Shown in pieces: positions 5,333 through 61,674 of a stretch of DNA of 64,000 nt. Origin of the DNA: Patescibacteria group bacterium (GTDB lineage: Bacteria > Patescibacteriota > Minisyncoccia > UBA6257 > Colwellbacteraceae); NCBI GenBank assembly GCA_023380305.1, contig JAMCQZ010000008.1, forward strand, positions 122,659-186,658, read 5' to 3'. The notes under the pieces are model-generated. The model was not told where the DNA came from. It ran no database searches and saw only the letters and a program-made list of their open reading frames with translations. The first letter of the stretch is position 1. Every line of letters starts with the position of its first letter. The position numbers were made by a program, and so were the translations under genes.

Positions 5333-5537
5333 GTGCCGCGAGAGGGAAGCTTACTACTCGTCATCGCCATCGCCTATCACATTATATAATTTTGTAGGCG
5401 ATTGTCGGACTCCGTTCTTAAACCCCTCGGTTTGAGACCCGCCGGCAGGCGGATCCGCTACGGAAAGTAAACTTCCCGGCCCCTTCTTTTTTCGATATTC
5501 TTACTCGCGTCATAAAATGCCCCTGACGGGGCACTTT
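5333..5537 (-). repeat. tRNA-linked structured element (Phe copy)
   Basis: 16-bp identity between 5333-5348 and tRNA-Phe end 5538-5553; core GAAGGGCC-hairpin...AAACC-GAGG-GGTTT. Confidence 0.8.
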
Positions 5538-5538
5538 G

Positions 5539-5610
5539 TGCCGCGAGAGGGAATCGAACCCCCGACGCCATCCTCTTCAGGGATGCGCTCTACCACTGAG
5601 CTATCACGGC
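5539..5610 (-). tRNA. tRNA-Phe(GAA)
   Basis: Anticodon arm CATCC-CTGAAGA-GGATG. Confidence 0.95.
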
Positions 5611-5681
5611 CTGAGATAAGGTTAGCATTTCCACCCTGGCTTTTCAATCTCAAAAAAATTGTTGTAGAATGGGTTTGCCAA

Positions 5682-5753
5682 GCCCCTGTAGTTCAACGGA
5701 TAGAACGACGCACTCCTAACGCGCCAATCGAGGTTCAATTCCTCGTGGGGGCA
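5682..5753 (+). tRNA. tRNA-Arg(CCT)
   Basis: Cloverleaf with loop CTCCTAA; anticodon stem has two A-C mismatches. Confidence 0.85.
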
Positions 5754-5778
5754 CACGCTTTAAAAAGCGTAGGACTAC

Positions 5779-5850
5779 GCCCTCGTAGTTCAATGGACAG
5801 AACCGGAGACTTCTAATCTCTTAATGGGGGTCCGATTCCTCCCGAGGGCA
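5779..5850 (+). tRNA. tRNA-Arg(TCT)
   Basis: Anticodon arm GGAGA-CTTCTAA-TCTCT; T-loop TCCGATT. Confidence 0.93.
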
Positions 5851-6076
5851 CATAAATCCGCCGATGAGGCGGATTTTTGGACCACTGGGAGGTCAATCGG
5901 ATTGGAAAAGGGGTCGGGGAAACTACCGTTTCCCCGTGGAGGAAACCTGCCGACAGGCAGGGCTAAAACCGCAGGGTGTTAGAGAAGCCCCTTCCTATTC
6001 TATTGACAATCGTTAGGGGCGAGGGAGATTCCGTGTTTCCCGAGGGCACATAAATCCGCCGACGAGGCGGATTTTT
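5851..6076 (+). repeat. tRNA-linked structured element (Arg-TCT copy)
   Basis: 39-bp direct repeat 5840-5878 / 6038-6076 (1 mismatch) around the shared hairpin core. Confidence 0.85.
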
Positions 6077-6083
6077 ATTAGGC

Positions 6084-6698
6084 TTAATCCTCGAAATACT
6101 TGTTGAACTCCCTGATCAATGTCTGAGCTTTTCGGTTTTGGCTGTTGATCTGACTTACCTGATCGTTGACCTGCTGAAGAATAGAAGAGGTAGCCGCATC
6201 GAAATCTTTCGGAGAATTGCTTAAAAACTTCAACCTCAACTGTTCGAGTAGATTCTGCAGGCCGCCGTTGTAGCTGATCAGCTGATTGACCAAAGTCATC
6301 TCCGCGGAGATGGCCTGCAACCCGGCACCCTGGGCCTGGACAGATTTGATTTCTCCGAGGCTGGCGATCATCTTTTGAAGCTCGGAAAGGAGGCCGATGC
6401 ATTTTTCCCTGATTTCGTTATTCCGTTTGATCTCGACGATCACCAGATCGACGGCTTTTTCGTAATTGCCAGCCTTGTCCTCGCGGCTGATGGCTTCGAG
6501 ATTCGCCGCCGCTTGACTCGAAAGACCGGTAATCTCTTCGGCGATAGCCACGCTGGCTGTTTTGGCTTCCAGAAATTCCGGAGGGACTTCAATTCTTTTA
6601 TTCGGAGAGCGGAAAACAAAGAAAACAGCAACGGCCACCATGGCGATGCCGGAAATTTTCAACCAGAGAAGCGCCTGTTTTTTAGGCATATTTTCCAT
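6084..6698 (-). CDS. Membrane-anchored helical/coiled-coil hypothetical protein
   Basis: N-terminal TM segment then heptad-rich helices. Start moved to MENMPKK because the longer ORF overlaps tRNA-Gly. Confidence 0.75.
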   Translation of the reverse strand: MENMPKKQALLWLKISGIAMVAVAVFFVFRSPNKRIEVPPEFLEAKTASVAIAEEITGLSSQAAANLEAISREDKAGNYEKAVDLVIVEIKRNNEIREKCIGLLSELQKMIASLGEIKSVQAQGAGLQAISAEMTLVNQLISYNGGLQNLLEQLRLKFLSNSPKDFDAATSSILQQVNDQVSQINSQNRKAQTLIREFNKYFED

Positions 6699-6780
6699 AT
6701 TATGAGATTTCTTTACAAGAAGCAAATAATTGATTAACCTGAATAATAGCTTTGTTTTTATAGATAAAAACGCAGAAAAA

Positions 6781-6851
6781 GCGGGATTAGTATAGTGGCA
6801 GTACGCTACCTTGCCAAGGTAATGGCGCCGGTTCGATTCCGGTATCCCGCT
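6781..6851 (+). tRNA. tRNA-Gly(GCC)
   Basis: Acceptor GCGGGAT/ATCCCGC; anticodon loop TTGCCAA. Confidence 0.93.
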
Positions 6852-6993
6852 CATAATAAAATATCCCCTAAAGGGGATATTTTATTTATACGTGATATCC
6901 GGATGAGTATAGGAAAGGGTCTCCGGCAGTTGCCGGACAAACCGAGTGGTTTGAGCGAGGAGTTGTGCGACGACGTTCGATCCCTATCCTGCT
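6852..6993 (+). repeat. tRNA-linked structured element (Gly copy, minimal)
   Basis: Hairpin, CGTGATATCCGGATGAG, GGAAAGGGTC-hairpin-AAACCGAGTGGTTT, GCGACGAC, then degenerate tRNA end GTTCGATCCCTATCCTGCT. Confidence 0.7.
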
Positions 6994-7038
6994 TTATTTT
7001 ACAAAGCCCTTTCCAGCCTATAAACTGAAATAGCCTTT

Positions 7039-7204
7039 GGGAGTTTAGGTAAGTGGTATACCGGCGGTCTCCAATTCCGCAGACAATCAAAAATGGGGCT
7101 ATAGTTCAGTGGTAGAATGTCGATCTCCAAAATCGATGACCGAGGTTCGAATCCTCGTGGCCCCGCCGACTAAGATATATGCGGGACGATTCCTCCAACT
7201 CCCG
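7039..7204 (+). pseudogene. Split tRNA-Trp(CCA): 5' half at 7039-7084, 3' end at ~7181-7204
   Basis: GGGAGTT acceptor strand, D arm GGTA/TACC and CTCCAAT loop; the complementary AACTCCC-G follows GATTCCTCC at 7188. Confidence 0.7.
7095..7165 (+). tRNA. tRNA-Trp(CCA)
   Basis: Acceptor GGGGCTA/TGGCCCC; anticodon arm TCGAT-CTCCAAA-ATCGA. Confidence 0.93.
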
Positions 7205-8371
7205 CCTCAAAAAACGCCCCTTATTACTTTTCCGCCATCAGACCTATGGTAGTTTGCTTGTCGGCGAGTTTGATCCGCGGAGGATTGAAGTTGAATCCGG
7301 CATATGGTTTTAGATAAGCGCCGTCAATGATTTTCGCCCGATGAAAATGACAAGGCCTCGCTAAAGATGTCAAAGATTGACGAGTATATTTAACTGTCTC
7401 CGGATCGCCGAGAAAACGATCACATCCATCCTTGCCTTGAGTGACAATCAACAGCTTCCCTCCTGGTTTTAAAACTCTCCACATTTCTTTAAGGGCCAAT
7501 TTCGCTCCTTGATAATCCATGTGCTCTAAAACGAAATAACAAAGAATCCCTCCGAATTTATTGTTCGGAAAATTAAGATGGCGAGCGTCGCCATAACGCA
7601 AATCCAGTCCTAAAGACTTAGCCATGGCGTTTTTTATCTTATCCAATTCATAATCAACGCCAATAATTCTTTTAGGATCCAAACTCACGAATTCGCCTAA
7701 CCCCGCACCGACATCAAGAATCTTCCCCGATAAATCTTTAAAGAATAAATCCCAAAGAAATTGTTGATGATGTATGCTCTGATCCCAAAAAGCCTTCACG
7801 CATTCGACATCGTCAAGATCTCTTATAAAAAGCTCATTTGCCATGAAGGGTCGCAGTTCGACATCGCCAAATTTGGCGGTATAGGCCTTCGGCACCCCCG
7901 GACATAATTCTCGAAGCAGGCAATTCGAACATTTTTCGACTAGGGTATCTCCAGGAGAATGTTTTACTAAAGACACGAATCCCGTCCATGCGCGACCTTC
8001 TCTGGGAAAAACGCACAAAGGACAACCCGATATTGATATATTATAGAAATGCTTTTGATCAGAGATATTTTGGATAATCGGGATAACATCTTTATAAGTA
8101 ACCATCTCGGACTCGGAAGAATAATCATAAAAAAGATCGAAATCTTCATGATGAGCGATAAATTTGCTTAATAAATCCTTAAGCCCGCCTAAAGATTTTT
8201 TATTAAGGCCGATACGATGCGGGTGTCCGTTCATAAATTAGTAGCTCTACAGCTTTCAACACTACCCATAACCTTACGCTTCTATTTCAGCATAACAAAG
8301 ATTAAAACAAGGTTCAAAATATAGAAACTCGGGTTCGATTCCTCCGACTCCCGCCTCAAAAAACGCCCCTT
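7188..8371. mobile_element. Single-gene islet bounded by a 35-bp tRNA-3'-derived direct repeat
   Basis: 7188-7222 and 8337-8371 match at 34/35 positions; interior is visibly AT-richer; no integrase inside. Confidence 0.7.
7224..8234 (-). CDS. Class I SAM-dependent methyltransferase with Cys-rich N-terminal domain
   Basis: ILDVGAGLG, GDARHLNFP and RVLKPGG motifs; N-terminal CPLC...CSNC-x5-CPG..Y..FG..ELRP. Confidence 0.85.
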   Translation of the reverse strand: MNGHPHRIGLNKKSLGGLKDLLSKFIAHHEDFDLFYDYSSESEMVTYKDVIPIIQNISDQKHFYNISISGCPLCVFPREGRAWTGFVSLVKHSPGDTLVEKCSNCLLRELCPGVPKAYTAKFGDVELRPFMANELFIRDLDDVECVKAFWDQSIHHQQFLWDLFFKDLSGKILDVGAGLGEFVSLDPKRIIGVDYELDKIKNAMAKSLGLDLRYGDARHLNFPNNKFGGILCYFVLEHMDYQGAKLALKEMWRVLKPGGKLLIVTQGKDGCDRFLGDPETVKYTRQSLTSLARPCHFHRAKIIDGAYLKPYAGFNFNPPRIKLADKQTTIGLMAEK

Positions 8372-8381
8372 GCGGGGCGTT

Positions 8382-9578
8382 TTAAACGACGATCTTCTTA
8401 AATTTTCTCTTCCCGATCTGGAGAATCAAGCCTTCCGCCGGGATATCGATTTCTTCGACCGGATTATCGTGTTTTTTCTCGTTTATATCGACTCCGCCCT
8501 GTTCCACCAGCCGCCTGGCTTCGCTCCGGCTTTTGGCCATATTGGCGGCGACAACGAGATCAATGATATTCATTCTGGAAGAAACGGCCCTAAAGACTTC
8601 GATGTTTTCGGGAGCTTCTTTTTCCCGGAAAACCCTGTTAAATCCGTCCTCGGCCGCTTTGGCGGCTCCGAGACCGTGATACAAAGCAGTGATTTCGAAA
8701 GCCAGTCTCGCCTTGGCGTCCCGAGGATTTTGCGAATCCATGATCTTTTTTATTTCCTCTTCTTTGAGATCGGTGCAAAGCCAGAAATATTTATAAATCA
8801 GCTCGTCATTTAGACTCATCATCTTGCCGTACATATCGCCTGGCTCGTCGGAAATATTGATGACGTTTCCCCAGCTCGTCGACATCTTCCGGCCATCGGT
8901 GCCTTCGAGCATTTCGTTTATCAAAATATCCTGTTCCTTCTGACGATAATATTTTTGAATCGTCCGGCCGGCCATCAAATTAAAAAGCTGGTCTGTCCCG
9001 CCGAGCTCGACGTCGGCCTTAATGGCGACGCTGTCATATCCCTGCATCAGCGGATATAAAAATTCACGAAGGCTTATTTCCTCATGACGCTCGAAACGGT
9101 CCTTAAAATTCCGACGTTCGAGCATCTGGAGGACGGAGAAGCTTTCCGCCAGATTGGCGATTTCTTTAAAATTTAGTTTTCTCAACCAATCGTTGTTGTT
9201 TCTAAACTCCACTTTCCGGAGATCCAGAATTTTGCCGAGCTGACGCTTGTAGTCGGCCATGTTCTTTCTAACCTGGGCTTCGGTGAGCATTGGACGCTTG
9301 GAAAGCTTGTCCGACGGGTCGCCGATCTGGGCCGTAAAGCCGCCGATAACGAGTACCACCTTGTGCCCAAGGTCTTGGAACTCCTTAAGCTTCCTGATGG
9401 CCACCGCCCGACCAAGATGAATCTTCGTCCCGGTCGGATCAATGCCGAGCTTCACGCGCAAACGCTTTCCGGACCTCAAGGCCTCTTCCAAATGCCCGCG
9501 ATCGATAACTTCGGCCACGCCCCGGGAAAGCAAAGCGTTGATCTTTTCCTCCTTATTTGTTTTTCTTGATGATTTCAT
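8382..9578 (-). CDS. tyrS: Tyrosyl-tRNA synthetase
   Basis: [30 protein letters not shown] and C-terminal S4-like domain. Confidence 0.96.
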
Positions 9579-10173
9579 CGATAAGGCCGTAGTCTTTAGC
9601 TTCCTCGGCGGTCAGCCAGAAATCGCGGTCGCTGTCTTTCTCAATTTTGGCAAGCGATTGCCCGGTCATCTTCGCCAAAAGCTGGTTGACCCTCTGTTTG
9701 GTCTTCAAGATCTGCTTGGCGGTAATCTCGATGTCGGTCGCCTGGCCTTCGGCCGCGCCCATCACTTGGTGCAGAAGGATTTCCGAATTGGGTAAAGCGA
9801 ATCTTTTTCCTTTGGCTCCGGCCGCCAAAAGAAAAGCGGCGAAAGAAGCGGCCATGCCGACGCAATAGGTCTCGACGGTCGGCCTGACCAGCTGCATCGT
9901 ATCGTAGATGGCCATACCAGCCGTTACCGATCCGCCCGGGGAATTGATATAAAGCTTGATGTTCTTCTTGGGATCCTCATAATCGAGGAAAAGAAGTTGG
10001 GCGATGATTAAATTCGCCACCTGGTCGTTGATCGGACCGCCCAAGAAAACCACCCTGTCCCTCAAAAGGCGGGAATAGATGTCGTAGGCCCGCTCGCCAT
10101 AAGTGCTTTTTTCGATGACCGTCGGCACCAGATATTGGTATCCTTCGGCTTCGTTTTTAATGTCTTTATTCAT
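9553..10173 (-). CDS. clpP: ATP-dependent Clp protease proteolytic subunit
   Basis: [23 protein letters not shown] motifs; ATG at 10173 follows the nusA stop. Confidence 0.96.
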
Positions 10174-10177
10174 TTTG

Positions 10178-11437
10178 TTAATCTTCTTCTCCGACAAACT
10201 TCGGAATAATTTTGGTTTCTTCAATTTTATCTTGTTTCAAATCGCCTTCCAAGACCTCAGGCAAAGTATCTTCATCCTCGGTTTCGGCGACACCCCCTTC
10301 TTGGACTTCTTCCGGTCTCGATTCCGAACGGACGTCGATCTTCATGCCTGTCAGTTTGGCGGCCAATCTGACATTTTGCCCGCCCTTGCCGATAGCAAGA
10401 CTCAATTGATCCTCGGCTACCAGAACCTTGGCTTCGCGACGCAGTGATATTTCCACGCTCAAAACCTTAGCCGGCGAAAGGGAGGCTGCCACGAATTTCT
10501 CCGGCTCCTCTGACCATTCGATGATATCAATTTTCTCCTGACCTCCAAGCTCGTTCGTTACCGCCATTACCCTCGTGCCCCGCTGCCCGACGCAGGATCC
10601 GACCGGGTCCACGCCTTGAGCTTTGGAAGCAACCGCGATTTTGGTGCGACTTCCCGGCTCACGGGCAACGCCTTTTATTTCCACTGTCCCGTCGTTGATT
10701 TCCGGAACTTCCAGTTCGAAAAGCCGATTGATAAACCTCGGATGCGACCGAGAAAGGATAATGCCCGGCTGGCCGCGACGATCTTCCTGGATGCTCAATA
10801 CGTAAAAACGCATTCTTTCGTTCGTACGATAATGTTCTCCCGGAATGGATTCATTGCCAAACATAATTCCCAGAGCCTTGCCGATTTCAACGTAAACATT
10901 CCCCCGGTCAAAACGGTGGATGATGCCGGAGACAACTTTGCCCTCCTTGTCTTTAAATTCCTGAAGAAGCATATCTTTTTCGGCCTCGCGGAGTTTCTGT
11001 AAAATAACCTGCTTGGCGGCTTGAGCGGCAATACGGCCGAAATCGGTCTTCGGCTCAAGGCTGAATTCCAAATTCTCGCCGACCTGAACGTCGGGGTTAA
11101 CCTTTTTCGCTTCTTCGACGAAAATATGTCTTTCCGGATTGTAACGGGGAAGTTTCGGCTCCTCTTCTTCCTGCGGCTCAGCCGGCTGTTCTTCCACGGC
11201 TTCTTCCTCGGTAACGACCCGGACCGTATTTTCATCAACCACCTCTTTCACCTGCCAAAAAGCCAACTCTCCGGTTTTTTCATCAAGCTTGGCCTTAATC
11301 ACTTCTCCCCGCTTGCCATATTCCTTGCGATAAGCGGCGGCGATAGACTCTTCTATAACCGAGATAATCTTTTCCGGCTCGATGCCCTTTTCCTTGGCGA
11401 CCTGGCCGATGACGATCAGCAACTGTTTTAAATCCAT
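10178..11437 (-). CDS. nusA: Transcription factor NusA
   Basis: [23 protein letters not shown] and [12 protein letters not shown] motifs. Confidence 0.97.
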
Positions 11438-11482
11438 TTTATTTTTGTTTTTTCCGCCAGAAGGCGATTTACTTTTATTTTT

Positions 11483-11509
11483 TTAAACCCCGCGGGAAGC
11501 GGGGTTTAA
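11483..11509. terminator. Terminator-like hairpin
   Basis: TTAAACCCCGC-GGGAA-GCGGGGTTTAA. Confidence 0.55.
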
Positions 11510-11549
11510 CATCAAGATTTAGTATACTCTCGAAAACCGATCTGTCAAG

Positions 11550-12785
11550 CTAAATCCCGAGCCTCTTCGCCGCTTCCTTAATAGCGTTGTAAGAAGTGGC
11601 CACGACCCAATAGGTGGTATCGCCGGATTTAAAGAATCCGTATTCTATCCTTTGGGAATTAGATCCCCTTGAAAATCTCACGATCTTGGTAGAATCGATG
11701 CTTCCGTTATCGAACTTCCCAAAATTGCCGGTGTCGGTCAGAAAAATATTGGCCAGCTGCTTGGACGCTTCGAATTTGGTTCCGATAGCGTTATAGGAAG
11801 TGGCTCCGACGCCGGATTTCACTTTGGCAACGAACCCAGGAAAAGGATTGGAAGAAGAGTCGTAATAAACAAATTGAGTGAAGTCGTCTTCGAAGTTGGC
11901 GCTCAAATCGGATTCCGGAATATCTCCCGGGAGAATAGCATTCACATAAATCGGGAGGGTGATCGGGCCGTCGTCATCGGCGAGCACTGCCTCAACGACG
12001 GTCGACGGTTTGATTTTTTCGACTGGAATCTTAGATAAGGCTTCTTTGATATTTGTAAGATCAACCGTCGCCAATTGAATATTCTCGATTTGGTCCGCCG
12101 GAATCGTGAAGTAAGAGGCGTGAACCCTCGTCGGCGCGACCTCCACCGCTTCCTCCGGAGCCGGAGCGATCGGCTGAGTCTCGGTCGCGGTCGGAGCCGG
12201 ACACGGCTCGCAGACCTGAACCGGACACATCTTCGGTAAAAGCACGTATTTAAAAAGCAAAAGTAGTCCCAAAATAGCTGCCAGTCCGATGACGACGGCG
12301 ATTAGCAGGGTATTCGATTTTTTTGGCATTCCGGGCTTGGAGGCGGAAAGGTTAACCACGTCCGGGGTGAAAACCGGCTCGTTCGGTCCGGCCGGAGCGG
12401 CCGCGAAAACCTGGGGAGCGGCTTCGGCGCCGCCGGTCGCCTGCAACGATTCGGCGTCCGAGGCCATGGTCCTGATGCCGATATCCGGAGCGGATGAAGG
12501 CGGGGGCGGAACCGGAGTGGATGCCGCTGGAGCAAACGGTTGCCCCATCGGCGCGGCCGGAGTCGGCTGGCTCGGCTGATTGAACGAAGCAGGCTGAGCC
12601 GGGATATTAAAAGCTTCGTTTACCGATTTCGGAAATTGATCGGTTGGGCTAGCGGCGAAAGTCGCCGGCGTCCCGAAAGAGGCCGGAGGGAACGGAGTCG
12701 GGCCCATGTTGTTTGCATTGGACGGAGGATTCGGCTGTTTTTGATCAGGCGCCGAATTTAAAGGAAAATTTTGTTGGCTATCCAT
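11550..12785 (-). CDS. Hypothetical bitopic membrane protein with Pro/Ala-rich N-terminus
   Basis: Low-complexity N-terminus with IRTMASD, one TM segment, extracytoplasmic C-terminal domain. Confidence 0.8.
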   Translation of the reverse strand: MDSQQNFPLNSAPDQKQPNPPSNANNMGPTPFPPASFGTPATFAASPTDQFPKSVNEAFNIPAQPASFNQPSQPTPAAPMGQPFAPAASTPVPPPPSSAPDIGIRTMASDAESLQATGGAEAAPQVFAAAPAGPNEPVFTPDVVNLSASKPGMPKKSNTLLIAVVIGLAAILGLLLLFKYVLLPKMCPVQVCEPCPAPTATETQPIAPAPEEAVEVAPTRVHASYFTIPADQIENIQLATVDLTNIKEALSKIPVEKIKPSTVVEAVLADDDGPITLPIYVNAILPGDIPESDLSANFEDDFTQFVYYDSSSNPFPGFVAKVKSGVGATSYNAIGTKFEASKQLANIFLTDTGNFGKFDNGSIDSTKIVRFSRGSNSQRIEYGFFKSGDTTYWVVATSYNAIKEAAKRLGI

Positions 12786-12815
12786 GACTTAATGATAGCA
12801 CAACGAAAACTTTTT

Positions 12816-15459: not shown

Positions 15460-15460
15460 T

Positions 15461-15688
15461 TTATTTGGCGGCCTTGGCCGCAAGATAATGCTCCAACTTG
15501 CGCCGCTTGCTCACCATTTTGAGCAAACCGCGGCGGGAGTGGACGTCTTTCGGGTGTTTTTTTAAGTGGGCGGTCAGCTCGTCAATCTGTTTATCTAAAA
15601 GGCCGACCTGAATCTGGATCGATCCGGTGTCGGTTTCATGAAGACCCTTCGCCTTGACGATTATTGATTTTTTGCGGGGTGTAAGCAT
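15461..15688 (-). CDS. rpsO: 30S ribosomal protein S15 (75 aa)
   Basis: [30 protein letters not shown]; start at MLTPRKK. Confidence 0.95.
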
Positions 15689-15823
15689 AAATTCTTTGTT
15701 TGGATAATTAAGATTAGCCCGAAATCCGTTTTTTTTCAAGGGGAACGATTTTTCCGAAGCGTCAAGGCGTTTTCGACCGGAAGCCGTTTCAATATTTTGC
15801 GACAAGCATGATAAAATTGATCG

Positions 15824-16711
15824 ATGATCGAAAAATACCTGAAAGACTACCTGGATTACCTGCAGATCGAGAAGAACCGCTCCTACCGGACCAAAGACGT
15901 TTACGGCCGGGCCCTCAAAAAATTCTTCGAGTTCGCCAAAATCAAGAAACCCGAAGACATCACAAACGACAAAATCCGTTCTTTCCGCATCCACCTCGCG
16001 GAAAGCACGAGGTTGAAAAAGAATACCCAAAGCTATTACGTCATCGCCATACGGAACTTCCTCCGTTATCTCATTAAAAGGGATATCGAGGTGATTTCCC
16101 CGGACAAAATCGAATTGCCGCAGATTCCCAAAAGACAGATCGACATCATCGAATACGAAGACCTGGAGCGGCTTTTAAGGGCGCCCGAAGGGTCGAGCCT
16201 CAAGGATCTCCGCGATCGGGCCATTCTCGAACTCCTCTTCTCAACCGGGCTTCGGGTGTCCGAACTCTGCGGACTCGACCGTTATTTAAACTGGAACCGC
16301 GGAGAGATTACCGTCCGCGGCAAAGGCGAAAAACTGCGGGTGGTCTTTATTTCGGACGCTGCCAGAAAAGCCATCAAAAACTACCTTGATAAACGTGGAG
16401 ATCCCGACTCAGCGCTCTTTGTCAGCTACTCGAATAACAAGAACCCGAAAGCCCTCGGCCGGATCACGCCGCGGAGCATCCAAAGACTCGTGGATTTTTA
16501 CAGTCGCAAAGCCGGCATCGCCAAAAGAATTTCGCCCCACACCCTGCGCCACCTTTTCGCGACCGATCTATTGATGAACGGAGCGGATTTGAGATCGGTC
16601 CAGGAGATGCTCGGCCACGCGAGCATCCAGACAACCCAGATCTATACCCACCTCACCAACAAGGCCCTAAAAGAAGTACACGAGGCTTTTCACGGAAGAC
16701 GAAGGAAATAA
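15824..16711 (+). CDS. XerC/XerD-family tyrosine recombinase
   Basis: [22 protein letters not shown] and TQIY motifs; catalytic set complete. Confidence 0.93.
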
Positions 16712-25753: not shown

Positions 25754-25792
25754 CAGCTGTCAAAAAATCCCTAAAGGGCGGTCCGAAAAACC

Positions 25793-25819
25793 ACGGGCTC
25801 GAATCCTGCGCCGTCCACC
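25793..25819 (+). repeat. Degenerate copy of tRNA-Val 3' end
   Basis: ACGGGCTCGAATCCTGCGCCGTCCACC versus ATAGGTTCAAATCCTATACCGTCCACA. Confidence 0.55.
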
Positions 25820-25859
25820 GTAAAAAATAAAGCCGCCTCTTTCGAGACGGCTTCGGGGA

Positions 25860-49145: not shown

Positions 49146-49148
49146 AAT

Positions 49149-51746: not shown

Positions 51747-51765
51747 TGTTAAAATAATACCATTT

Positions 51766-52536
51766 TTAACCCGCGAAAACACGGCTCAACTCGATGATCT
51801 GGTCGAAGGAAAGTTCCTGGCCCCGGATGGAGGGGTCGATGCCTTGTTTCTCGAGCCGACTTTGGATTTCTCCCTTGTTGATTTTGAGGGCCGAGAGATT
51901 GTTAAGGATGGTTTTTCTCGGTTGTTTGAAGAGCGTCTTGATAAAGGCGTAGTAGTTTTGGCGTTCGGCTTCGCTTCTATCAATTTGTTTGGTTTTAAGG
52001 AGAATGACGGCCGAATCCACTTTGGGCTCTGGAGAAAAGTCTTTTCTGGGAATGCTTAAGACTATTTGGGGCTCGGCCCAGAAGGCGATACTCCCTGCAA
52101 GCAGGTTCATCTCCGGCGGCTTGGCGGACGCGCGTTCAGCCACTTCTTTCTGGATGGTGAAAACCGAGATCATAGGTTTTCGCGGTAGATTTTCAATCAA
52201 TCTAAAAAGATGGCCGGTGATGTAGTAGGGAATATTGCCGCATAGTTTGTAGCCGTAGCCGATGTTTTCGACGATTGCCGGCAGAGATTTGAGGGCGTCG
52301 GCTTCAACCACTTCCAGTTTTTCCGGGGACAAAGGCATTAATCTGGCGGCCAGTTTCGGGTCGCGTTCAATAGCGATCAGTTTCCTCGGATTTTTATAGA
52401 GCAGATGTTTGGTCAGCTCTCCATGGCCCGGGCCGATTTCGATGAGGACGTCGTCCGGAGAAATATCCAAAACCCCGGCGATTCTTTCAAGAACCGTTTC
52501 GTTTTTCAAAAAATGCTGGCCTAATCGCCTCATCAA
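51766..52536 (-). CDS. rsmA: 16S rRNA dimethyladenosine transferase
   Basis: LGQHFL, EIGPGHG, NIPYYIT and PKVDS motifs. Confidence 0.95.
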   Translation of the reverse strand: MMRRLGQHFLKNETVLERIAGVLDISPDDVLIEIGPGHGELTKHLLYKNPRKLIAIERDPKLAARLMPLSPEKLEVVEADALKSLPAIVENIGYGYKLCGNIPYYITGHLFRLIENLPRKPMISVFTIQKEVAERASAKPPEMNLLAGSIAFWAEPQIVLSIPRKDFSPEPKVDSAVILLKTKQIDRSEAERQNYYAFIKTLFKQPRKTILNNLSALKINKGEIQSRLEKQGIDPSIRGQELSFDQIIELSRVFAG

Positions 52537-54278: not shown

Positions 54279-54926
54279 ATTAGTAATTTAGCTCACAAAT
54301 CAAGATATGTTTTCTTGGCGGCGATAGGAATCGCCATATTTTTTGCGGGTTTCGGCCAGAGTATTTTAGCAAAAAGCGAAGCCCAAAAGCTATCGAAGTT
54401 TTTGGCCGAAAATTCGGTTTTCGGATCGGTTTTCCCGGGATTGCGGCCGGACGGCTCGTTTTCGGCCTTTTCCCAGATTATTTCCCCGGAGGTAGTCATT
54501 TCCGACGGATTAAACCGTGAACGGATCACGGAAGGGGCCTTGTTCGAGGCTTCGGAGACGGTTGAAGACGATCTCGCCGGCCGGACCGAAACCACGATCT
54601 ATAAAGTCCAGCCGAGAGATACTCTTGTTTCCGTCGCCAGAAAGTTCAATATTTCGACAGACACCATCGTGTGGGCCAACGGTTTGAAGACAAGGGCTTT
54701 GAAGCGGGGTTCGAGCCTGGTGATTCTTCCGGTCTCCGGAGTGATCCATGAAATCAAATCTGGTGAGACCGTGGAATCGATCGCCGACAGCTACCACGTG
54801 CCGGCCCAGCAGATTTACGCTTTCAATAAAGGCAAGATTTTAACCGAGGGAGTCGAACTTATCGTCCCCGGAGGTCAGCCTTTGGACAACGGTTTGGCCA
54901 CGCAGTCTTCGGCGAAAGTCAACTAA
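54279..54926 (+). CDS. Membrane-anchored protein with two LysM domains (start uncertain)
   Basis: YKVQPRDTL..VARKF and HEIKSGETVESIA..Y; no ATG; candidate starts ATT 54279 or TTG 54315. Confidence 0.75.
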   Translation: MSNLAHKSRYVFLAAIGIAIFFAGFGQSILAKSEAQKLSKFLAENSVFGSVFPGLRPDGSFSAFSQIISPEVVISDGLNRERITEGALFEASETVEDDLAGRTETTIYKVQPRDTLVSVARKFNISTDTIVWANGLKTRALKRGSSLVILPVSGVIHEIKSGETVESIADSYHVPAQQIYAFNKGKILTEGVELIVPGGQPLDNGLATQSSAKVN

Positions 54927-54948
54927 AAGATTTTTGTGAGAGCCGCTT

Positions 54949-56487
54949 TCAAGCGGCGTTTTTTAATCTGTATTGATAGGCCTCAGCTACGTGGTCGGCC
55001 GTAACGAGTTCCGATTCCTCGAGATCGGCGATGGTGCGGCTTACCTTGAGCATCCGGAAATAGCCCCGGCCGGAAAGCTCCGATTGGTCAAAGATTTTCT
55101 TTAGCATGTTGTCGGCGCCGCGGTCGCAATTGATAAGTTCCTCACATTGTTTCGAAGACATTTCGCTATTGAGGAGTAGGGAGATTTTCTGTTGTGCAAA
55201 ACGTTCTTTTTGAATTTCTCTTGCTTGGTTGACCCTTCTTCGGATTTCTGAGCTTCTCGCTCCGCCGCTTGATCTGAGTTCGCCGAGTTTCAGATTGGGA
55301 ACGTGGATTTGAATGTCAATCCGGTCAAGCAAGGGGCCGGAGATTTTCTTCTGGTAGCGGAAGATTTCGTTGGCGCTACAGCGACATTCGCGTTTCGGGT
55401 CGCCGTAAAATCCGCAGGGGCATGGATTCATAGCGGCGACGAATTGGAAACGCGAGGGGAAGGTGAGGCTGGACTTCGCCCTTGAAACGACGATCTCTCC
55501 AGATTCAAGGGGTTGCCTCAGGGCTTCGAGAATATCCCGGTGGAATTCGGGTAGCTCGTCCAAGAAAAGCACGCCGCGGTGGCTTAAGCTGATTTCCCCG
55601 GGTCTGGGATTCGCGCCGCCGCCGATCACGGAAACGATCGAGGCTGAATGGTGTGGCTGCCGGAAAGGCCGCGATTTTATAAAAGAAGCATTTTCGGGGA
55701 TCATTCCCGCGGCGCTCCAGACCTTGGAGACTTCGAGCGCTTCGGCCAGGGTGAGCGGCGGCAGAATGGAGCCGAGGGCTTTGGCGAGCATGGTCTTGCC
55801 GGACCCCGGCTGTCCGGACATGAGAATGTTGTGGCCGCCGGAAGCGGCGACAATCAGGGCCCGTTTGGCCGCTTCCTGGCCGCGGACGTCTCCGAAGTCG
55901 AATTCTGCTTCGATATTTTCGAAATCCGGTTCTTGGTTCGGGAAAACATCGATCAAACGTTTGTTTTCGAAGTGGTCGATGGCTTCCGCGAGGCTGCCAA
56001 CTGGGACGACGGCGATCTCTTGGATAAGGCTTGCTTCCTCGGCGTTTTGTTTCGGAAGGACGATGGATTTAAATCCCTGTTCGGCGGCGGCCGAGGCGAT
56101 GTTCAAGGCGCCGCGCATCGGCCGGAGTCCGCCGTCGAGGCCGAGCTCGCCGACAAAAAGGATCTGCGAGGAGTCGAATTCTTTCATCTGGTTTGAAGCC
56201 ACTAGATAGGCGAGGGCGATTCCGAGATCGTATTGCGATCCGGATTTGTCGATATCCGCCGGCGCGAGGTTGACGACGATTCTCCGGTTTTCGCGGTTCG
56301 GCGGCCGGCAGCCGCTCCACTTGAGGGCCGAGTTTACCCTCTCTTTGGCCTCGGACAGTGCCTTGTCCGCCAGGCCGACGATCGTAAAACTATGAAGGCC
56401 GACGTTTAAGTCGACCTCGATTTCGATTATCCTCGCCTGCACCCCCTCGAGTTCCGCTGAGAAAACGCGAGACAGGTTGGCGGGCAT
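54949..56487 (-). CDS. comM: ComM/YifB Mg-chelatase-like AAA+ ATPase
   Basis: IVGLAD, NLAPAD, GQPGSGKT, RPFRQPHH, LDELPEF and MNPCPCG motifs. Confidence 0.93.
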   Translation of the reverse strand: MPANLSRVFSAELEGVQARIIEIEVDLNVGLHSFTIVGLADKALSEAKERVNSALKWSGCRPPNRENRRIVVNLAPADIDKSGSQYDLGIALAYLVASNQMKEFDSSQILFVGELGLDGGLRPMRGALNIASAAAEQGFKSIVLPKQNAEEASLIQEIAVVPVGSLAEAIDHFENKRLIDVFPNQEPDFENIEAEFDFGDVRGQEAAKRALIVAASGGHNILMSGQPGSGKTMLAKALGSILPPLTLAEALEVSKVWSAAGMIPENASFIKSRPFRQPHHSASIVSVIGGGANPRPGEISLSHRGVLFLDELPEFHRDILEALRQPLESGEIVVSRAKSSLTFPSRFQFVAAMNPCPCGFYGDPKRECRCSANEIFRYQKKISGPLLDRIDIQIHVPNLKLGELRSSGGARSSEIRRRVNQAREIQKERFAQQKISLLLNSEMSSKQCEELINCDRGADNMLKKIFDQSELSGRGYFRMLKVSRTIADLEESELVTADHVAEAYQYRLKNAA

Positions 56488-56488
56488 G

Positions 56489-56824
56489 TCAGCTTTCCTG
56501 CTTGTTGTGCTCTTTGCAATAGCGCGCCGACGGATTGAGTTCGAGAACCTCCATCTCGATGTTTTCCCCGCCAATTTCGCAGATGCCGTAGACGTTGTTC
56601 TTGATTTTGTTCAAAGCCGAACGGATGTCGTCGAGTTTCTGCAGCAAGATGTCCTGCTTGCTTGCCTGCAAATCGGCCGCGGTCGATTCGTCGGCTTCTT
56701 CGGTTTCCTCGTCCTGGGTGTCGCCGAAATTGACAACATCGGGCGTGGCTTTGAGTTCGGACTCGATTTTGGCCTCTTCTTGGACCAGTCTTTTTTCAAA
56801 TTTTTCTAAATCTTCGTTCGTCAT
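56489..56824 (-). CDS. DksA/TraR-family protein
   Basis: Coiled coil with EEADE; ALNKI..YGICE...I...L...P.ARYC. Confidence 0.85.
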   Translation of the reverse strand: MTNEDLEKFEKRLVQEEAKIESELKATPDVVNFGDTQDEETEEADESTAADLQASKQDILLQKLDDIRSALNKIKNNVYGICEIGGENIEMEVLELNPSARYCKEHNKQES

Positions 56825-56837
56825 ATAATAAAAGTAT

Positions 56838-57404
56838 ATGATTTACAGCTTAAAAGGCAAATTAACGGAAAAGGGACCGGGTTATGTTGTCGTGGAGACT
56901 TCGGGAGTGGGCTACAAAACGTTCTTCCCGGCTTCATCCGAAAACAAATTACCGAAACTGGGGGAAGACATTAAGCTTTATACCAAGCTCCGGGTGAAAG
57001 ACGACGGATTCGATCTCTACGGATTCCTTTATAAAGAAGAGCGGGAATTTTTCGAGCTTTTAAATACGGTCTCCGGCGTCGGTCCAAAAACCGCTCTGGG
57101 AATTTTGAATTTGGCTTCGGTCGGGGATTTGAAGTTCGCTATAGCCGAAGGCAACAAGGACGTACTCATCAAGTCGATCGGTATCGGCAAGAAGACGGCC
57201 GAAAGGCTGATCACCGAGCTGAAAGACAAGATTTTTGTCCCGGAGTCCGGCAAAAAATCCGCCTCCTGGGACGAGGATGTTTACCAGGCGTTGCTCGAGC
57301 TCGGCTATAAATCGAAAGAGGCCAAGGAAGCAGTGATGAAAATAAATCCTGATTTAAAGACCTCCGGGGAAAAGCTGAAAGAGGTTTTAAAAAAAATAAA
57401 ATAA
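56838..57404 (+). CDS. ruvA: Holliday junction protein RuvA
   Basis: GVGY, LYGF, VSGVGPKTA, GIGKKTAERL and ALLELGY motifs. Confidence 0.96.
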   Translation: MIYSLKGKLTEKGPGYVVVETSGVGYKTFFPASSENKLPKLGEDIKLYTKLRVKDDGFDLYGFLYKEEREFFELLNTVSGVGPKTALGILNLASVGDLKFAIAEGNKDVLIKSIGIGKKTAERLITELKDKIFVPESGKKSASWDEDVYQALLELGYKSKEAKEAVMKINPDLKTSGEKLKEVLKKIK

Positions 57405-57458
57405 GAAAGAGGCCCGTTGTAAGCGGGTCTCTGGTTTGGCTGCCAGCGCGGAGCCGGA

Positions 57459-57758
57459 TCAGCCGATGGACAGGGATTCAACCTTGCCGTCCAGGATGCG
57501 GAAAGCGCATCTTCCTTGAGGCAGGAGCGAGGCGGAGAGGCCGTAGTTATGCACGACATCTTCATCGGTGTATGGCTGGAGAAGCTGATCTTCGATGTAG
57601 ACGCTCGCCACGAGCTTCAAGACAGACCGGAAAGCGTTCTTGATGAAGTGTTGAGCCTGGCTCTCCGAGAAGGCCCTGACGAAACAAATGCCCTTGACCC
57701 TACTCGTCGGGACCCGATACAGCTGGAGCACGGACTTTGTTCTCGGTCTCACGGCCAT
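57459..57758 (-). CDS. Hypothetical protein (99 aa)
   Basis: SD AAGGAGG ahead of ATG; hairpin at ~57408-57431 downstream. Confidence 0.6.
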   Translation of the reverse strand: MAVRPRTKSVLQLYRVPTSRVKGICFVRAFSESQAQHFIKNAFRSVLKLVASVYIEDQLLQPYTDEDVVHNYGLSASLLPQGRCAFRILDGKVESLSIG

Positions 57759-57912
57759 ACAATCTCCTCCTTTAGCGATTGTGGTTTTTCACCTGAAAAT
57801 GAATCAAGGTCCGATCAAATTGCCTATTTTTAAAATATAACACATTTCCCGATTTTTGTCCAGAGAGGACTCACTCGATCGAACATTCTGCGATATAATC
57901 TATTTAATCACC

Positions 57913-59334
57913 ATGAAATTAACTTTTTTCGGCGGAGTCGGGGAAGTGACCGGCTCGAATTATTTATTGGAAAGCGAGCCTCTTGATCCTAAAGATCGGC
58001 CGACGCGCATTCTAATCGACTGTGGTCTGGAGCAAGCAGGCCACTATTGCGAAGATTCGAACTTCGAGCCTTTCCCGTTCGACCTCAAAGAGATTGACGC
58101 CGTCATCATCACCCATAGCCATATCGACCACATCGGCCGCGTCCCGAAGCTCGTAAGGGATGGGTTTAAGGGCTCGATCATTTCCACGCCTCCGGCCAAG
58201 GATTTTGCCGAAGAGCTGTTGCTCGATTCCGAGCATATTCTCGGGAACGAAGCCGAGGCGAAAGGCAGGGAACCTCTTTATACCGCCGTCGATGTCGAGG
58301 ATGCGCTCGGCCTTTGGAAAACCATTCGTTATCACGAAATCAAAAAAATCAAGGATTTCGAAATCGAGCTTTACGACGCCGGACATATCCTGGGTTCGAG
58401 CTTCGTCGTTGTCTCGACTACGGAGTCAAAGAAGGACAAGGACGGCCGGCCCGTAGATGGGGCGGTTAAAAAGAAAATCGTTTTTTCCGGGGATCTTGGC
58501 AATGTTCCGGCGCCGCTCGTCAAAGATACCGAGATCGTGAACCAGGCAGATTATGTGCTTGTTGAGTCGACCTACGGCGATCGCCTGCATCAGGATCTCG
58601 CAACAAGACAGGACCTTCTGGAAAACGCCATCGAAGACACGGTCAATTCCAAGGGCGCATTGATGATTCCGGCTTTTGCCATGGAGCGCACCCAGGAGCT
58701 ACTTTACGAGATCAACTCGCTCGTTTCCGAAGGCCGCATTCCCCAGGCTCCGGTTTTCATCGACAGCCCGCTTGCTATCAGGCTGACGGCCATCTATAAA
58801 AAATATTCGAATAACCCCGAGTATTTTGACGCCGAATCTCTGGCCAAGCTTCGCGGGGGGGACGCTATTTTCGATTTTCCGGGGTTGCAGACGACGCTTA
58901 CCACCGAAGAGTCGAAGATGATCAACGATGTGCCCATGCCCAAAGTGATCATTGCCGGGTCTGGCATGTCTCAGGGCGGCCGCATCATGCACCACGAGCT
59001 CCGCTATTTGCCCGATAAAAACAGCACCATGCTTTTCATCGGCTTCCAGGTTCAGGGGTCTCTGGGAAGGGCGATTTACGACGGGGAGAAAAAGGTAAGA
59101 ATTTTGGGAGAAGAGGTGGCGGTCCGCTGCCGAGTGAGATCGATCGACGGTTATTCGGCTCACGCCGACCAGGAGGGGCTGATCAAGTGGCTTTATCCGA
59201 TGAAAGACAGCCTAAAGAAAATTTTCGTTACCCACGGAGAACCGGAGATAAGCGCCGAATTCGCCGCCGCCGCTTCGGATAAACTGGCGGTTGAAACCGA
59301 GGTCCCGCAGAAAGGCGAGAGTGTGATATTATAA
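57913..59334 (+). CDS. MBL-fold beta-CASP RNA-processing nuclease
   Basis: EVTGS, THSHIDH, AGHILGS, ESTYGDR, SAHAD and THGE motifs. Confidence 0.93.
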   Translation: MKLTFFGGVGEVTGSNYLLESEPLDPKDRPTRILIDCGLEQAGHYCEDSNFEPFPFDLKEIDAVIITHSHIDHIGRVPKLVRDGFKGSIISTPPAKDFAEELLLDSEHILGNEAEAKGREPLYTAVDVEDALGLWKTIRYHEIKKIKDFEIELYDAGHILGSSFVVVSTTESKKDKDGRPVDGAVKKKIVFSGDLGNVPAPLVKDTEIVNQADYVLVESTYGDRLHQDLATRQDLLENAIEDTVNSKGALMIPAFAMERTQELLYEINSLVSEGRIPQAPVFIDSPLAIRLTAIYKKYSNNPEYFDAESLAKLRGGDAIFDFPGLQTTLTTEESKMINDVPMPKVIIAGSGMSQGGRIMHHELRYLPDKNSTMLFIGFQVQGSLGRAIYDGEKKVRILGEEVAVRCRVRSIDGYSAHADQEGLIKWLYPMKDSLKKIFVTHGEPEISAEFAAAASDKLAVETEVPQKGESVIL

Positions 59335-59355
59335 AAACAAAACAACAACGATTAC

Positions 59356-59946
59356 ATGCCTGATTCGACATTGAAATATAAGATTTGCGTTTCCGGAGCA
59401 GCCGAGACTGCTCATTGCGGAGAAGCGGCTTTCAAACAGGCCGAGGAACTCGGCCGGGAGATTATTAGACACGGCGCGGTTTTGGTCGACGGCGCGACCA
59501 CCGGGTTCCCTTTCTGGGCGGCCAAAGGAGCCAAGCTCGAAGGCGGAACCGTTGTCGGCGTTTCGCCGGCTGATTCCAAACAGGAGCACATCAAGCTCTA
59601 CAAACTGCCGGTCGATTATCACGACATCATCATGTACACCGGTCACGGATATTCCGGACGCAACCTTCTTTTGACGCGCATGGCCGACGCCGTGGTCGTC
59701 GGTTGCGGACGCATGGGGACGCTTAATGAATTCACCATCGCTTTCGAGGATAAAAAACCCATCGGGATTCTGGAAGGGGAATGGGTGACGGACGAAGTCA
59801 TCAAGACCATCATCGAAAAATCGTTTCGCGGGGACGAGATGAAGGACCGCATCGCTTACGATGCCGATCCCAAAGCCCTACTCGACAAATTGATTGCCAT
59901 CGTTTCCCGCCTTGAAGAAACAAACGGCATCGTCAAACCGCTCTAA
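59356..59946 (+). CDS. LOG/SLOG-family nucleotide-binding protein
   Basis: ICVSG, A.ELG, GATTG, VGVSP, GRN and GTLNE motifs. Confidence 0.85.
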   Translation: MPDSTLKYKICVSGAAETAHCGEAAFKQAEELGREIIRHGAVLVDGATTGFPFWAAKGAKLEGGTVVGVSPADSKQEHIKLYKLPVDYHDIIMYTGHGYSGRNLLLTRMADAVVVGCGRMGTLNEFTIAFEDKKPIGILEGEWVTDEVIKTIIEKSFRGDEMKDRIAYDADPKALLDKLIAIVSRLEETNGIVKPL

Positions 59947-59969
59947 AGGTCGGAAAATTATTTTAATAA

Positions 59970-60218
59970 ATGGAAAAATCAGTGGGCATGGTTACCCATT
60001 ATTATGGGAAACTCGGGGTGGCCATCGTCAGGCTTTCCGGCGAACTTAAACTCGGAGAAAAGATTAGGATTTTCGGAAAAACAACGGACTTTTCCGAGGA
60101 GAATACCTCGATGCAGGCCGATCATAAGGTCATCAAATCGGCGGGCAAAGGGGAAGAGGTGGGCATTAAAGTTAGCCAGGAAGTGCGCGAGGGAGATGAA
60201 GTTTTCAAAATCGTATAA
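59970..60218 (+). CDS. Small translation-factor beta-barrel-like protein
   Basis: VG.VTHYY.KLGVA..L...LK.G..I...SMQ...G..VGIKV...VREGD.V. Confidence 0.8.
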   Translation: MEKSVGMVTHYYGKLGVAIVRLSGELKLGEKIRIFGKTTDFSEENTSMQADHKVIKSAGKGEEVGIKVSQEVREGDEVFKIV

Positions 60219-61323
60219 GGAAATTGTTATCCCGGCAAGCATGCTTGCGTCCTTGATTATTGGCGCCGGCATGTTTTCTCTGCCTTACGTAACAAGCAGG
60301 TCCGGCCTCATCGTCGGCCTGGTTTATCTTGTCGTTTTTACGGGGCTCATGTCTCTGATCCATTTGTTTTACGCCGATGTCGTCGCCGATGACCGGGATA
60401 GCCGTTTTGTCGGCCAAAGCAGGCGCTATCTCGGAAAAGCCGGTTTTTTCTTCGGGGCAGTCGCCATTTTGATCGGCACTACTTTGGCTTTGACGATTTA
60501 TCTTATTCTGACCGTCGGTTTCGCTTCCCTGGTGTTTCCCCGTCTGCCGACTTTAGCCGCGGCTGTTATTTTCTGGGCCGCCGCCGGCCTCGCCATCGGT
60601 CTGGGCGTCAAGGAGATCGCCGGCGTCGACAGTTTGTTGACGATTTTTATGGTCTTCCTCGCGGCCACCGTGGCTTTCTTCGGCTTGAGATCCGGCCATA
60701 CAGCCATGGGTGGACTTGATCTCTGGCCGGTCGCTGGTGCATCGCTTTTGCTTTTGCCTCTTGGTCCGTTTCTTTTCTCTTTGAACGGCCGGGCGGCCAT
60801 TGTCTCCCTGAGGGATTATTTCGATACCAACCGTCTGGATAAGAGAAAAATGAAACAGGCGATTATTTTGGGAACGTCGATCCCGGCGTTCGTCTATCTG
60901 TTTTTCATCGTGGGCATCATTATGTTGGCGGCTGGGGCGCCGGCCAAGGATATAGTCCAGGACCTCGCTTTTCTGCCAGCCTACGCCAGGCCGGTTATCG
61001 GCGGCCTGGGGCTCATCGCCATTTTTACTTCGTATATTTTTCTCGGTCTTGAACTCAAATCCATTTTTGAAAGAGATTTCGGTTTGCGAAAGGGACTGGC
61101 TTTCGCGGCCACTATTTTCCCGGCGCTTTTTTTCTATCTTTTCGGCGAGCGCAACCTTGTCGATTTGATCGCCGCCGCCGGCGGGATATTCATCGCTATC
61201 GAGAGCATCCTCGTGATTTTGATGTGGGAGAAAACGAAATCGAAGAAGCTTTTTATCAACCGCGTCATTATCATTGTTTTCGTCCTGGGAGCGGTTTACG
61301 AGGTTTGGAAGAGGATCGGCTGA
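60196..61323 (+). CDS. Aromatic amino acid permease family transporter
   Basis: IIGAGMFSLPY, about 11 TM segments, TSY..LG; start at MKFSKSY. Confidence 0.85.
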   Translation: MKFSKSYKEIVIPASMLASLIIGAGMFSLPYVTSRSGLIVGLVYLVVFTGLMSLIHLFYADVVADDRDSRFVGQSRRYLGKAGFFFGAVAILIGTTLALTIYLILTVGFASLVFPRLPTLAAAVIFWAAAGLAIGLGVKEIAGVDSLLTIFMVFLAATVAFFGLRSGHTAMGGLDLWPVAGASLLLLPLGPFLFSLNGRAAIVSLRDYFDTNRLDKRKMKQAIILGTSIPAFVYLFFIVGIIMLAAGAPAKDIVQDLAFLPAYARPVIGGLGLIAIFTSYIFLGLELKSIFERDFGLRKGLAFAATIFPALFFYLFGERNLVDLIAAAGGIFIAIESILVILMWEKTKSKKLFINRVIIIVFVLGAVYEVWKRIG

Positions 61324-61378
61324 CGAATTGCCGAGTTTCCCGATAGGCCGTATAATCTGGGCTGTCAGACAACTGATC

Positions 61379-61453
61379 GCCTCGGTAGTTCAATGGATAG
61401 AATGCGAGCCTCCGAAGCTTGCGATGAAGGTTCGATTCCCTCCCGAGGCACCA
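61379..61453 (+). tRNA. tRNA-Arg(CCG)
   Basis: Anticodon arm CGAGC-CTCCGAA-GCTTG; encoded CCA. Confidence 0.95.
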
Positions 61454-61674
61454 AAAAATACTGCCTGTGGCAGTATTTTTGTGCCCTGGAGAAGATTGAG
61501 AACAAGGAAGGTGTCAGGGAACTCGTTCCCTGCGGAGGAAGAACTGAAACCGAGAGGTGTCAGAGAGGAGCGGACGCGAAGTCCCGAGCTTATCGAGGGA
61601 CGGAGACGGTAGCGACGATGTTCGCTTCCCTCCCGAGGCACAACACAAAGCCGCCTTGAAGGCGGCTTTGTGTT
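61454..61674 (+). repeat. tRNA-linked structured element (Arg-CCG copy)
   Basis: 16-bp identity 61436-61451 / 61626-61641; shared core; hairpins at 61454-61480 and 61642-61674. Confidence 0.85.

Follow-up and report, generated by a model that had tools for sequence, protein, structure and literature searches.

What are the repeats that stand behind four different tRNA genes in this stretch of a Patescibacteria group genome, and how did they come to be there? The window (the whole 64,000-nucleotide stretch that was analysed) belongs to a genome of 544 kb that is 97% complete, designated G000 here; its congeners are G001 and G002. An earlier note had described a common architecture behind the tRNA genes for Phe, Arg-TCT, Gly and Arg-CCG, and its parts are present as described. 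We conclude that the four tRNA-linked repeats are true members of a widespread family of gene-less mini-insertions in ultra-small bacteria. A reading of the core family as mobile units is well supported. As a whole, the repeats are probably best explained as a non-autonomous mobile DNA family of ∼150–250 bp, the Patescibacteria counterpart of the tRNA-linked repeats of E. coli; for the guide role of its inverted arm and a single-strand route of movement, we infer rather than observe.

A unit can be parsed in order as the gene-end segment T (in tRNA genes, the 3' segment from the T-loop onward), a spacer S that is usually a terminator-like hairpin, an inverted arm L, a core with two hairpins (H1 and H2) and a direct gene-end copy R. 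Behind each of the four tRNA genes, which were located with ARAGORN, a hairpin with a T-run is followed by an inverted arm, the core and a 3' copy:

5538–5610, minus strand: tRNA-Phe(GAA), target of unit 1 (ARAGORN)
5514–5537, minus strand: unit 1 spacer, a terminator-like hairpin
5492–5513, minus strand: unit 1 inverted arm, anti-Phe and degenerate (score 21.5, best of the four tails)
5417–5491, minus strand: unit 1 core, with purine lead-in, H1 (5460–5479), inserted small palindrome and H2 (5417–5436)
5349–5416, minus strand: unit 1 variable hairpin, AT-rich loop and right-end linker
5333–5348, minus strand: unit 1 direct copy of the tRNA-Phe 3' end, 16 nt, exact
5779–5851, plus strand: tRNA-Arg(TCT), target of unit 2 (ARAGORN)
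5852–5902, plus strand: unit 2 terminator-like hairpin (5852–5878) and inverted arm (5879–5902)
5903–6037, plus strand: unit 2 core, with H1 (5914–5936), inserted palindrome, H2 (5963–5982) and variable hairpin
6038–6076, plus strand: unit 2 direct copy of the tRNA 3' end (12 nt, exact) and copy of the terminator hairpin
6781–6852, plus strand: tRNA-Gly(GCC), target of unit 3 (ARAGORN)
6853–6993, plus strand: unit 3, shortened, with terminator-like hairpin (6853–6887) and arm (6888–6909); in its remainder H1 is missing, followed by a palindrome (6922–6937), H2 (6938–6953) and a degenerate copy (6975–6993)
61379–61453, plus strand: tRNA-Arg(CCG), target of unit 4 (ARAGORN)
61454–61503, plus strand: unit 4 terminator-like hairpin (61454–61480) and arm (61481–61503)
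61504–61625, plus strand: unit 4 core, with H1 (61515–61532), H2 (61544–61563), variable palindrome and right-end linker
61626–61674, plus strand: unit 4 direct copy of the tRNA 3' end (16 nt, exact) and second terminator-like hairpin
5155–5221, minus strand: possible coreless fifth remnant behind tRNA-Pro, with short inverted arm, palindrome and 3' copy (5155–5170), identified by eye and unscored by the model

The motif GCGAYGAY precedes the tRNA copy in the Phe, Gly and Arg-CCG units, the three of four that had been reported. Public DNA contigs from two studies, one of which may be the source sample, span 5255–5576 with no differences; no public RNA run was listed for the stretch. Against 2000 shuffles each, all four arms match their own tRNA better than chance (p = 0.003 for Phe, 0.0015 for Arg-TCT, and 0.014 and 0.04 for the other two units). 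The proposal that each arm is matched to its own tRNA holds with one qualification: among the four tails, the own tRNA is the best match for three of the arms, and the exception is the Arg-CCG arm, which scores 21.0 against the Arg-TCT tail and 16.5 against its own. The loops of the variable hairpins (∼5375–5400 and 5995–6015, and in the Asp, Glu and Gln units) are AT-rich, with −10-like or −35-like hexamers seen by eye; these loops could act as outward promoters.

A scan of G000 over 400 nt downstream of each of its 41 tRNA genes and its tmRNA gene revealed further such layouts at tmRNA, Gln, Tyr, Asp and Glu, with a partial one at Leu. Behind tRNA-Gln(CTG), at C5:2648-3141 (L002), two to three partial units are nested or in tandem. 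Nine cores of this genome were used to build a covariance model (R1), and their covariation bears out the claim that the core stems differ in sequence and keep pairing: 93.8% of cells are paired, 9 of 15 pairs show two-sided change, and none of 500 shuffles scored as high. In 102 cores from relatives, aligned (A3) by fitting to the model and taken from related genomes that are not independent, 98% of cells are paired and 11 of 15 pairs change on both sides, with 274 two-sided cells and none of 500 shuffles reaching these values; slid controls fell far below the real pairing. G-T pairs outnumber A-C pairs in the cores (23 versus 8), which indicates that the folding strand is the one reading L-core-R, and at tRNA genes this is the transcript strand. 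The mobile form may be either RNA or single-stranded DNA, as the pairing data would fit both. The loop of R contains an insertion resembling the GCGAAGC mini-hairpin, a motif unusually stable as DNA, in 11 of 97 copies. No described Rfam family covers the core in the window at gathering or E-value thresholds, and 11 further loci gave tRNA matches only.

Within G000, R1 gave 15 matches at E ≤ 1: ten strong, three weak but tRNA-linked, and two probably due to chance. The ten strong matches comprise the nine training copies and one at C8:58376-58470, which is found ∼4 kb downstream of tRNA-Asn and has a degenerate Asn copy at its end. The model also matched 24 of 40 relatives, with 1–14 copies each, and neither of the congeners; in a phylum-wide set of 150 genomes, with only 29 candidates scored in each, it matched 11. 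The exact H1 pattern occurs in at least 120 stretches of the species collection; among the 80 matches listed, 73 carry Patescibacteria-group names, six are unlabelled and one is labelled Bdellovibrionales. The expected enrichment 3' of tRNA genes was found in the model-selected loci, where a tRNA or tmRNA gene on the same strand ends at most 150 nt before the core in 110 of 145 cases; 31 cores are not so placed and four are at contig edges. In the pattern-selected set of 80 cores these numbers are 42, 33 and five, and some of the cores without tRNA linkage follow tRNA genes missed by ARAGORN. The set of tRNAs that carry units varies between genomes. IMG/VR contained no exact match to a 35-nt pattern, and a phage collection no match; ten IMG/VR matches to a 16-nt pattern were rejected as cores, several of them being P-loop coding sequence.

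Comparison of arm, copy and target over many loci shows what the arm follows. In 81 tRNA-linked copies the arm scores 22.7 against the cognate tRNA versus 15.5 against non-cognate ones, and the cognate tRNA ranks first for 37 of the 81 arms and within the top tenth for 63; the Glu arm of G000 ranks below most non-cognate tails. The distal copy R matches the cognate tRNA best in 74 of 81. L agrees with its target at tRNA positions 53–60 (0.74–0.98) and fades to background by position 66 (97 copies). At the variable T-loop positions 57 and 59 the agreement is 0.89 and 0.90, versus 0.54 and 0.30 with permuted targets (n = 97), and a second set of 42 copies, for which the H1 pattern was the sole selection and which may share a few loci with the first, gave 0.83 and 0.93 versus 0.50 and 0.32. 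R agrees with the target from position 60/61 to the end (0.86–0.99). Because gapless alignment by position overstates the mismatch of R, R was recounted by motif: its T-loop is mostly replaced, with TC at 55–56 changed to GA in 46 of 66 copies and T as the default at position 59 (51 of 66). Positions 57 and 59 are each tracked by L in 73 of 78 copies, and by R in 62 and 30 of 66, respectively. The L:target duplex is stronger than L:R in 73 of 78 copies with RNA parameters and in 72 of 78 with DNA parameters. From this tracking and the stronger duplex, we conclude that the arm follows the target and not the element's own copy. Arm conservation is highest at the outer end of the palindrome.

Empty sites in close relatives, which a mobile element should leave, are seen in both congeners. 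G001 is without a unit at the Phe, Arg-TCT, Gly, Arg-CCG and Asp genes, and G002 at those for Phe, Arg-TCT and Gly. What follows the empty-site tRNA is, for Phe and Asp, the flank found after R in G000; at unit 1, the sequence beyond the copy is that lying directly 3' of tRNA-Phe in the congeners. Long perfect duplications, such as those of L035, L045 and L057, point to very young copies. Rearrangement was also seen: in G002 (C46, L195) tRNA-Gly and a 256-aa open reading frame (ORF) are inverted relative to the window, and Arg-TCT and Gly converge on one shared hairpin. Among 64 cores of relatives, the nearest neighbour belongs to the same genome for 25 of the 58 eligible (permutation mean 3.5, maximum 13), and a core at the same tRNA type of another genome is nearest for only 1 of 62. 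Clustering by genome and not by tRNA type indicates that, within a lineage, one core comes to occupy different tRNA genes and is re-tailored to them; with the matched arms, it upholds the idea of a non-autonomous element re-tailored to each target.

Targets are not confined to tRNA genes. The genes for S9, a CTP-synthase-like GATase and SecA have a core with matched L and a gene-end copy at their 3' ends, and those of two translational GTPases have one antisense at their starts, likewise with matched L and copy (all by Pfam); by eye, others were found at the ends of RNase H-, uvrB-, rpmG- and lepA-like genes and on the antisense side of tRNA 5' ends. The antisense cores of L025 and L342, at the tRNA-Leu and tRNA-Phe 5' ends, have an arm and a copy that match this end. 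Insertion occurs at conserved gene ends and leaves the gene unbroken, mostly at tRNA or tmRNA T-arms and also at rpsI-, pyrG-, secA-, uvrB-, lepA- and typA-like genes. In 11 gene-end copy pairs (14 protein-gene pairs minus L220, L354 and L372, where the automatic reading frame was wrong) 40 codons differ synonymously and 26 non-synonymously, a count that takes in edge and non-coding codons; the numbers are five and none for the typA-like pair, and six and one for the uvrB-like pair. Neutral decay of a plain duplication would be mostly non-synonymous, so the unit appears to import a foreign gene-end allele. In the typA-like unit, a single case, one side of the arm follows R and the other side follows the gene body, as predicted for the host sequence before insertion. 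The notion of the spacer as a cargo slot is weakened: most long spacers look like later insertions, and a restriction gene at tRNA-Asn adjoins an IS1595 transposase fragment.

Other observations in the window concern further tRNA genes. A tRNA-Trp gene (7095–7167) of a different allele is nested in a broken tRNA-Trp (7039–7206), whose 5' half (∼7039–7080) and 3' end (7187–7206) match the intact gene of both congeners; on its sequence, this is a tRNA gene replacement. The acceptor stem of tRNA-Pro(TGG) (5155–5293, minus strand) is unlike that of the congeners, whose 3' end and flank persist ∼50 nt downstream, and the copy at 5155–5170 matches the congeners' Pro allele, not the window's. A short tRNA-Val-like 3' copy without a core follows tRNA-Val(TAC) at ∼25790–25820.

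In the mechanism that we propose, the unit would move as a small circle or folded single strand bearing a replacement gene end, and would recombine near the border of T-loop and T-stem, so that the displaced host end would stay behind as the distal copy. L, loosely paired with R in the free unit, would swap to the perfectly matching target strand and would thereby select or record the target; an enzyme acting in trans would be required. A stronger alternative, which we consider less likely than not, is that the family is self-retargeting mobile DNA, in which pairing of an 8–13 nt arm with the target strand sets the insertion site and a putative enzyme reads the hairpin core. If true, this would be a programmable gene-end recombination system unlike IS110 bridge RNAs, integrons or IS200/IS605, and the E. 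coli tRNA-linked repeats would be relics of such a system. If the arm guides insertion, the mobilising enzyme could be a compact programmable recombinase. The units would also offer streamlined genomes a possible route for exchanging alleles of tRNA genes and gene ends.

As noted earlier, no mobilising enzyme adjoins the units of the window. Serine and tyrosine recombinases, GIY-YIG nucleases, Y1 transposases and IS110 recombinases were sought over G000 and its 40 relatives, and reverse transcriptase in G000. Large serine recombinases are present in 12 of 41 genomes, and the core-richest relatives without one are G035, G009, G006 and G021; in this order, 134 of 251 genomes carry such genes. 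Tyrosine recombinases occur in 39 of 41, mostly singly and also in core-less genomes; the only one of G000 is Xer-like (window 15824–16711) and lies beside tRNA-Leu(TAG), the tRNA at which G013 and G020 have a core. GIY-YIG proteins, counting UvrC-length frames, are found in all 41 and show no link to the core. Y1 transposase (PF01797, HUH) occurs in 10 of 41 and is absent from G000, G006, G009 and G021, and the IS110 DEDD recombinase (PF01548) occurs in none of 41.

Several of these and other observations weigh against the mobile-DNA explanation. None of the five families searched over the 41 genomes tracks the core, and the 140 ORFs beside cores include only three GIY-YIG and one Xer-like. 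No circle or excision joint was seen in the contigs of four DNA runs, a search that cannot show absence, and a mobilome preprint assigns its E. coli tyrT signal to RNA/DNA hybrids (bioRxiv 2024.07.17.603846). Some cores of the pattern-selected set have no recognisable target, and the shared ancestry of the genomes behind the 102-core alignment must be set beside its pairing statistics. At L054 and L184 the distal copy is unfit for the stems of the resident tRNA and L fits, which argues against a uniform polarity; the simple model then needs whole-gene replacement, and replacement of the kind seen for Trp and Pro in the window could reconcile the two loci.

A different origin, which we regard as unlikely, would make the units cargo-less, att-bounded leftovers of integrase islands, with the arm a by-product of hairpin-templated repair that has no targeting role. 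Three islands with a large serine recombinase (L237, L238 and L261) do end in arm, core and copy, and the targets have a likeness to those of tyrosine-integrase islands, which use the tRNA T-arm, tmRNA, rpsI and lepA. In a dedicated sample of 40 recombinase loci, chosen for long contigs from the best 150 matches, 24 adjoin a tRNA or tmRNA 3' end, but only 1 of the 24 ends in a core; the stretches were at most ∼18 kb, and longer islands would be missed. In L237, L240 and L261 a degenerate remnant of the last bases of the tRNA precedes the spacer (by eye), which suggests that the islands came later and pushed an existing unit away. In L237 the recombinase C-terminus is read through an antisense tRNA. 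The presence of one core at many unrelated targets and the best conservation of the arm at the outer end of the palindrome also speak against island remnants.

The mobile-DNA explanation must also be set against a role in the host, namely a co-transcribed non-coding RNA kept by the host, whose arm would invade the pre-tRNA T-arm on read-through or whose 3' copy would be a processing signal; we consider this doubtful. In its favour, the strand that folds is, at tRNA genes, also the one transcribed. The three rRNA-linked repeats of E. coli were shown to be transcribed, are processed and bind Hfq and CsrA, and the authors suggest the 3' repeat as an RNase E site (PMC8144298). Against it, the congener sites are empty, the tRNA set differs between genomes, some copies are antisense to host genes or placed at the ends of protein genes, and a terminator-like hairpin usually stands between tRNA and core. 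With so patchy a distribution, tRNA maturation, a role considered in the earlier note, is not supported as the main one.

As a sub-case of the favoured explanation, small GIY-YIG (Ssn-like) single-strand nucleases together with host repair might move the unit, which we judge improbable as it stands. These nucleases are a candidate for the mobilising enzyme: they are the only nuclease recurring beside cores (3 of 140 ORFs), and four of five short GIY-YIG ORFs in G000 abut tRNA genes, one being closed by the right-end motif of the family and a tRNA-Asn copy. Ssn enzymes are described as cleaving the hairpin repeats that belong to them when these are single-stranded DNA (PMC11893778). However, the core is found in none of 28 GIY-YIG loci of relatives, G006 and G021 (nine cores each) have a UvrC-length match only, and several core-less genomes have many short ones. 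Three of the G000 ORFs (C3:5530-5754, C8:62484-62690 and C6:38512-38721) end just upstream of tRNA-Lys, -Asn and -Ser and are preceded by a palindrome-interrupted copy of the 5' end of the tRNA, an arrangement that recurs in relatives (L117, L129 and L131). In L012:5497-5748 (G000 C8), an 83-aa GIY-YIG ORF lies between tRNA-Asn and its 3' copy, with the family right-end motif and no core.

A retro-element copied by a tRNA-primed reverse transcriptase, with the arm as its primer-binding site, is hardly credible, since the arm, though complementary to part of the tRNA 3' half, matches the T-loop at 53–62, is at background by 66 and so misses the 3' terminus, protein-gene and antisense targets cannot prime, and no reverse transcriptase was found in G000 (relatives not searched) or among the 140 neighbouring ORFs; the tRNA-primed copying once proposed is not supported.

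The family can be placed among known systems by what it shares with each. Unlike REP/RAYT or IS200/IS605 elements, its repeats are not accompanied by a Y1 transposase in G000. In IS110/IS1111 bridge-RNA elements a short base-pairing segment matches each target, and a short segment matches each target here as well; the differences are that the recombinase is found in 0 of 41 genomes, that gene-end duplications are long, and that the guide-like arm is part of the element end. As in tRNA-targeting integrative elements, the target gene is left intact, a distal gene-end copy is present and the alleles differ synonymously, but there is no integrase, one core serves many targets, and a matched arm lies ∼100 nt from the distal copy. 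In integron attC sites a folded single strand is closed by an inverse copy of the sequence with which the unit starts, units form arrays and one strand folds preferentially. Folded-strand closure, arrays and strand preference are shared by eye, whereas the internal core here is conserved in sequence, the units are mostly empty, with apparent cargo mostly a later insertion, and the sole tyrosine recombinase of G000 scores 134 bits against a TIGR02249 cut-off of 265. The Ssn system shares small GIY-YIG genes in the same tRNA-linked arrays and small palindromes, here inserted in core hairpins; its SRMs are described as 20–50 nt inverted repeats flanking ssn genes (PMC11893778), whereas the core flanks none of the 28 sampled GIY-YIG genes.

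The closest relatives in design are the tRNA-linked repeats of E. coli, of which there are 22 at ten loci, with 18–19 bp 3' copies; they have been known since 1978 without a function (PMC8144298). Contrary to the earlier note, which held that such repeats do not account for an anti-tRNA arm matched to each host tRNA, the consensus of the Rfam family RtT (RF00391, rttR) has this arm as its outer stem, paired with the tRNA 3' copy, and in E. coli the Tyr units carry an anti-Tyr arm and the Lys units an anti-Lys arm; a script found no such arm in the 5S unit. The layout was therefore already known in sequence. Version 3 of PMC10542128 no longer mentions RtT. RF00391 gave no match in G000 at E ≤ 10 (gathering score 45) and none in the window, and R1 gave no match in three E. 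coli loci; the core sequences are unrelated at model level, so that the family is not RtT, though built like a tRNA-linked repeat. Both stand behind tRNA genes with a 3' gene copy, a tailored inverted arm, a hairpin core and tandem units, and the E. coli lysQ unit (lysT-lysQ) has terminator, arm, core, copy and terminator copy, as in units 2 and 4 of the window. In contrast to E. coli, the copies here are exact over 12–16 nt instead of 18–19, the targets include protein-gene ends and antisense sites, and the arm, within an anatomy shared with RtT, pairs better with the tRNA gene than with the copy. A search of the open literature, beyond which most subscription papers lie, including Rudd 1999, found no paper on the Patescibacteria family or on arm tailoring. 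Taken together, the inverted arm and 3' copy are familiar features and the core sequence is distinct; new here are an arm that copies the T-loop of the target and not the distal copy, cores that group by genome, and targets at protein-gene ends and in antisense. With well over 100 diverse copies, empty sites and non-tRNA targets, the core family makes the nature of tRNA-linked repeats testable by comparison and in vitro.

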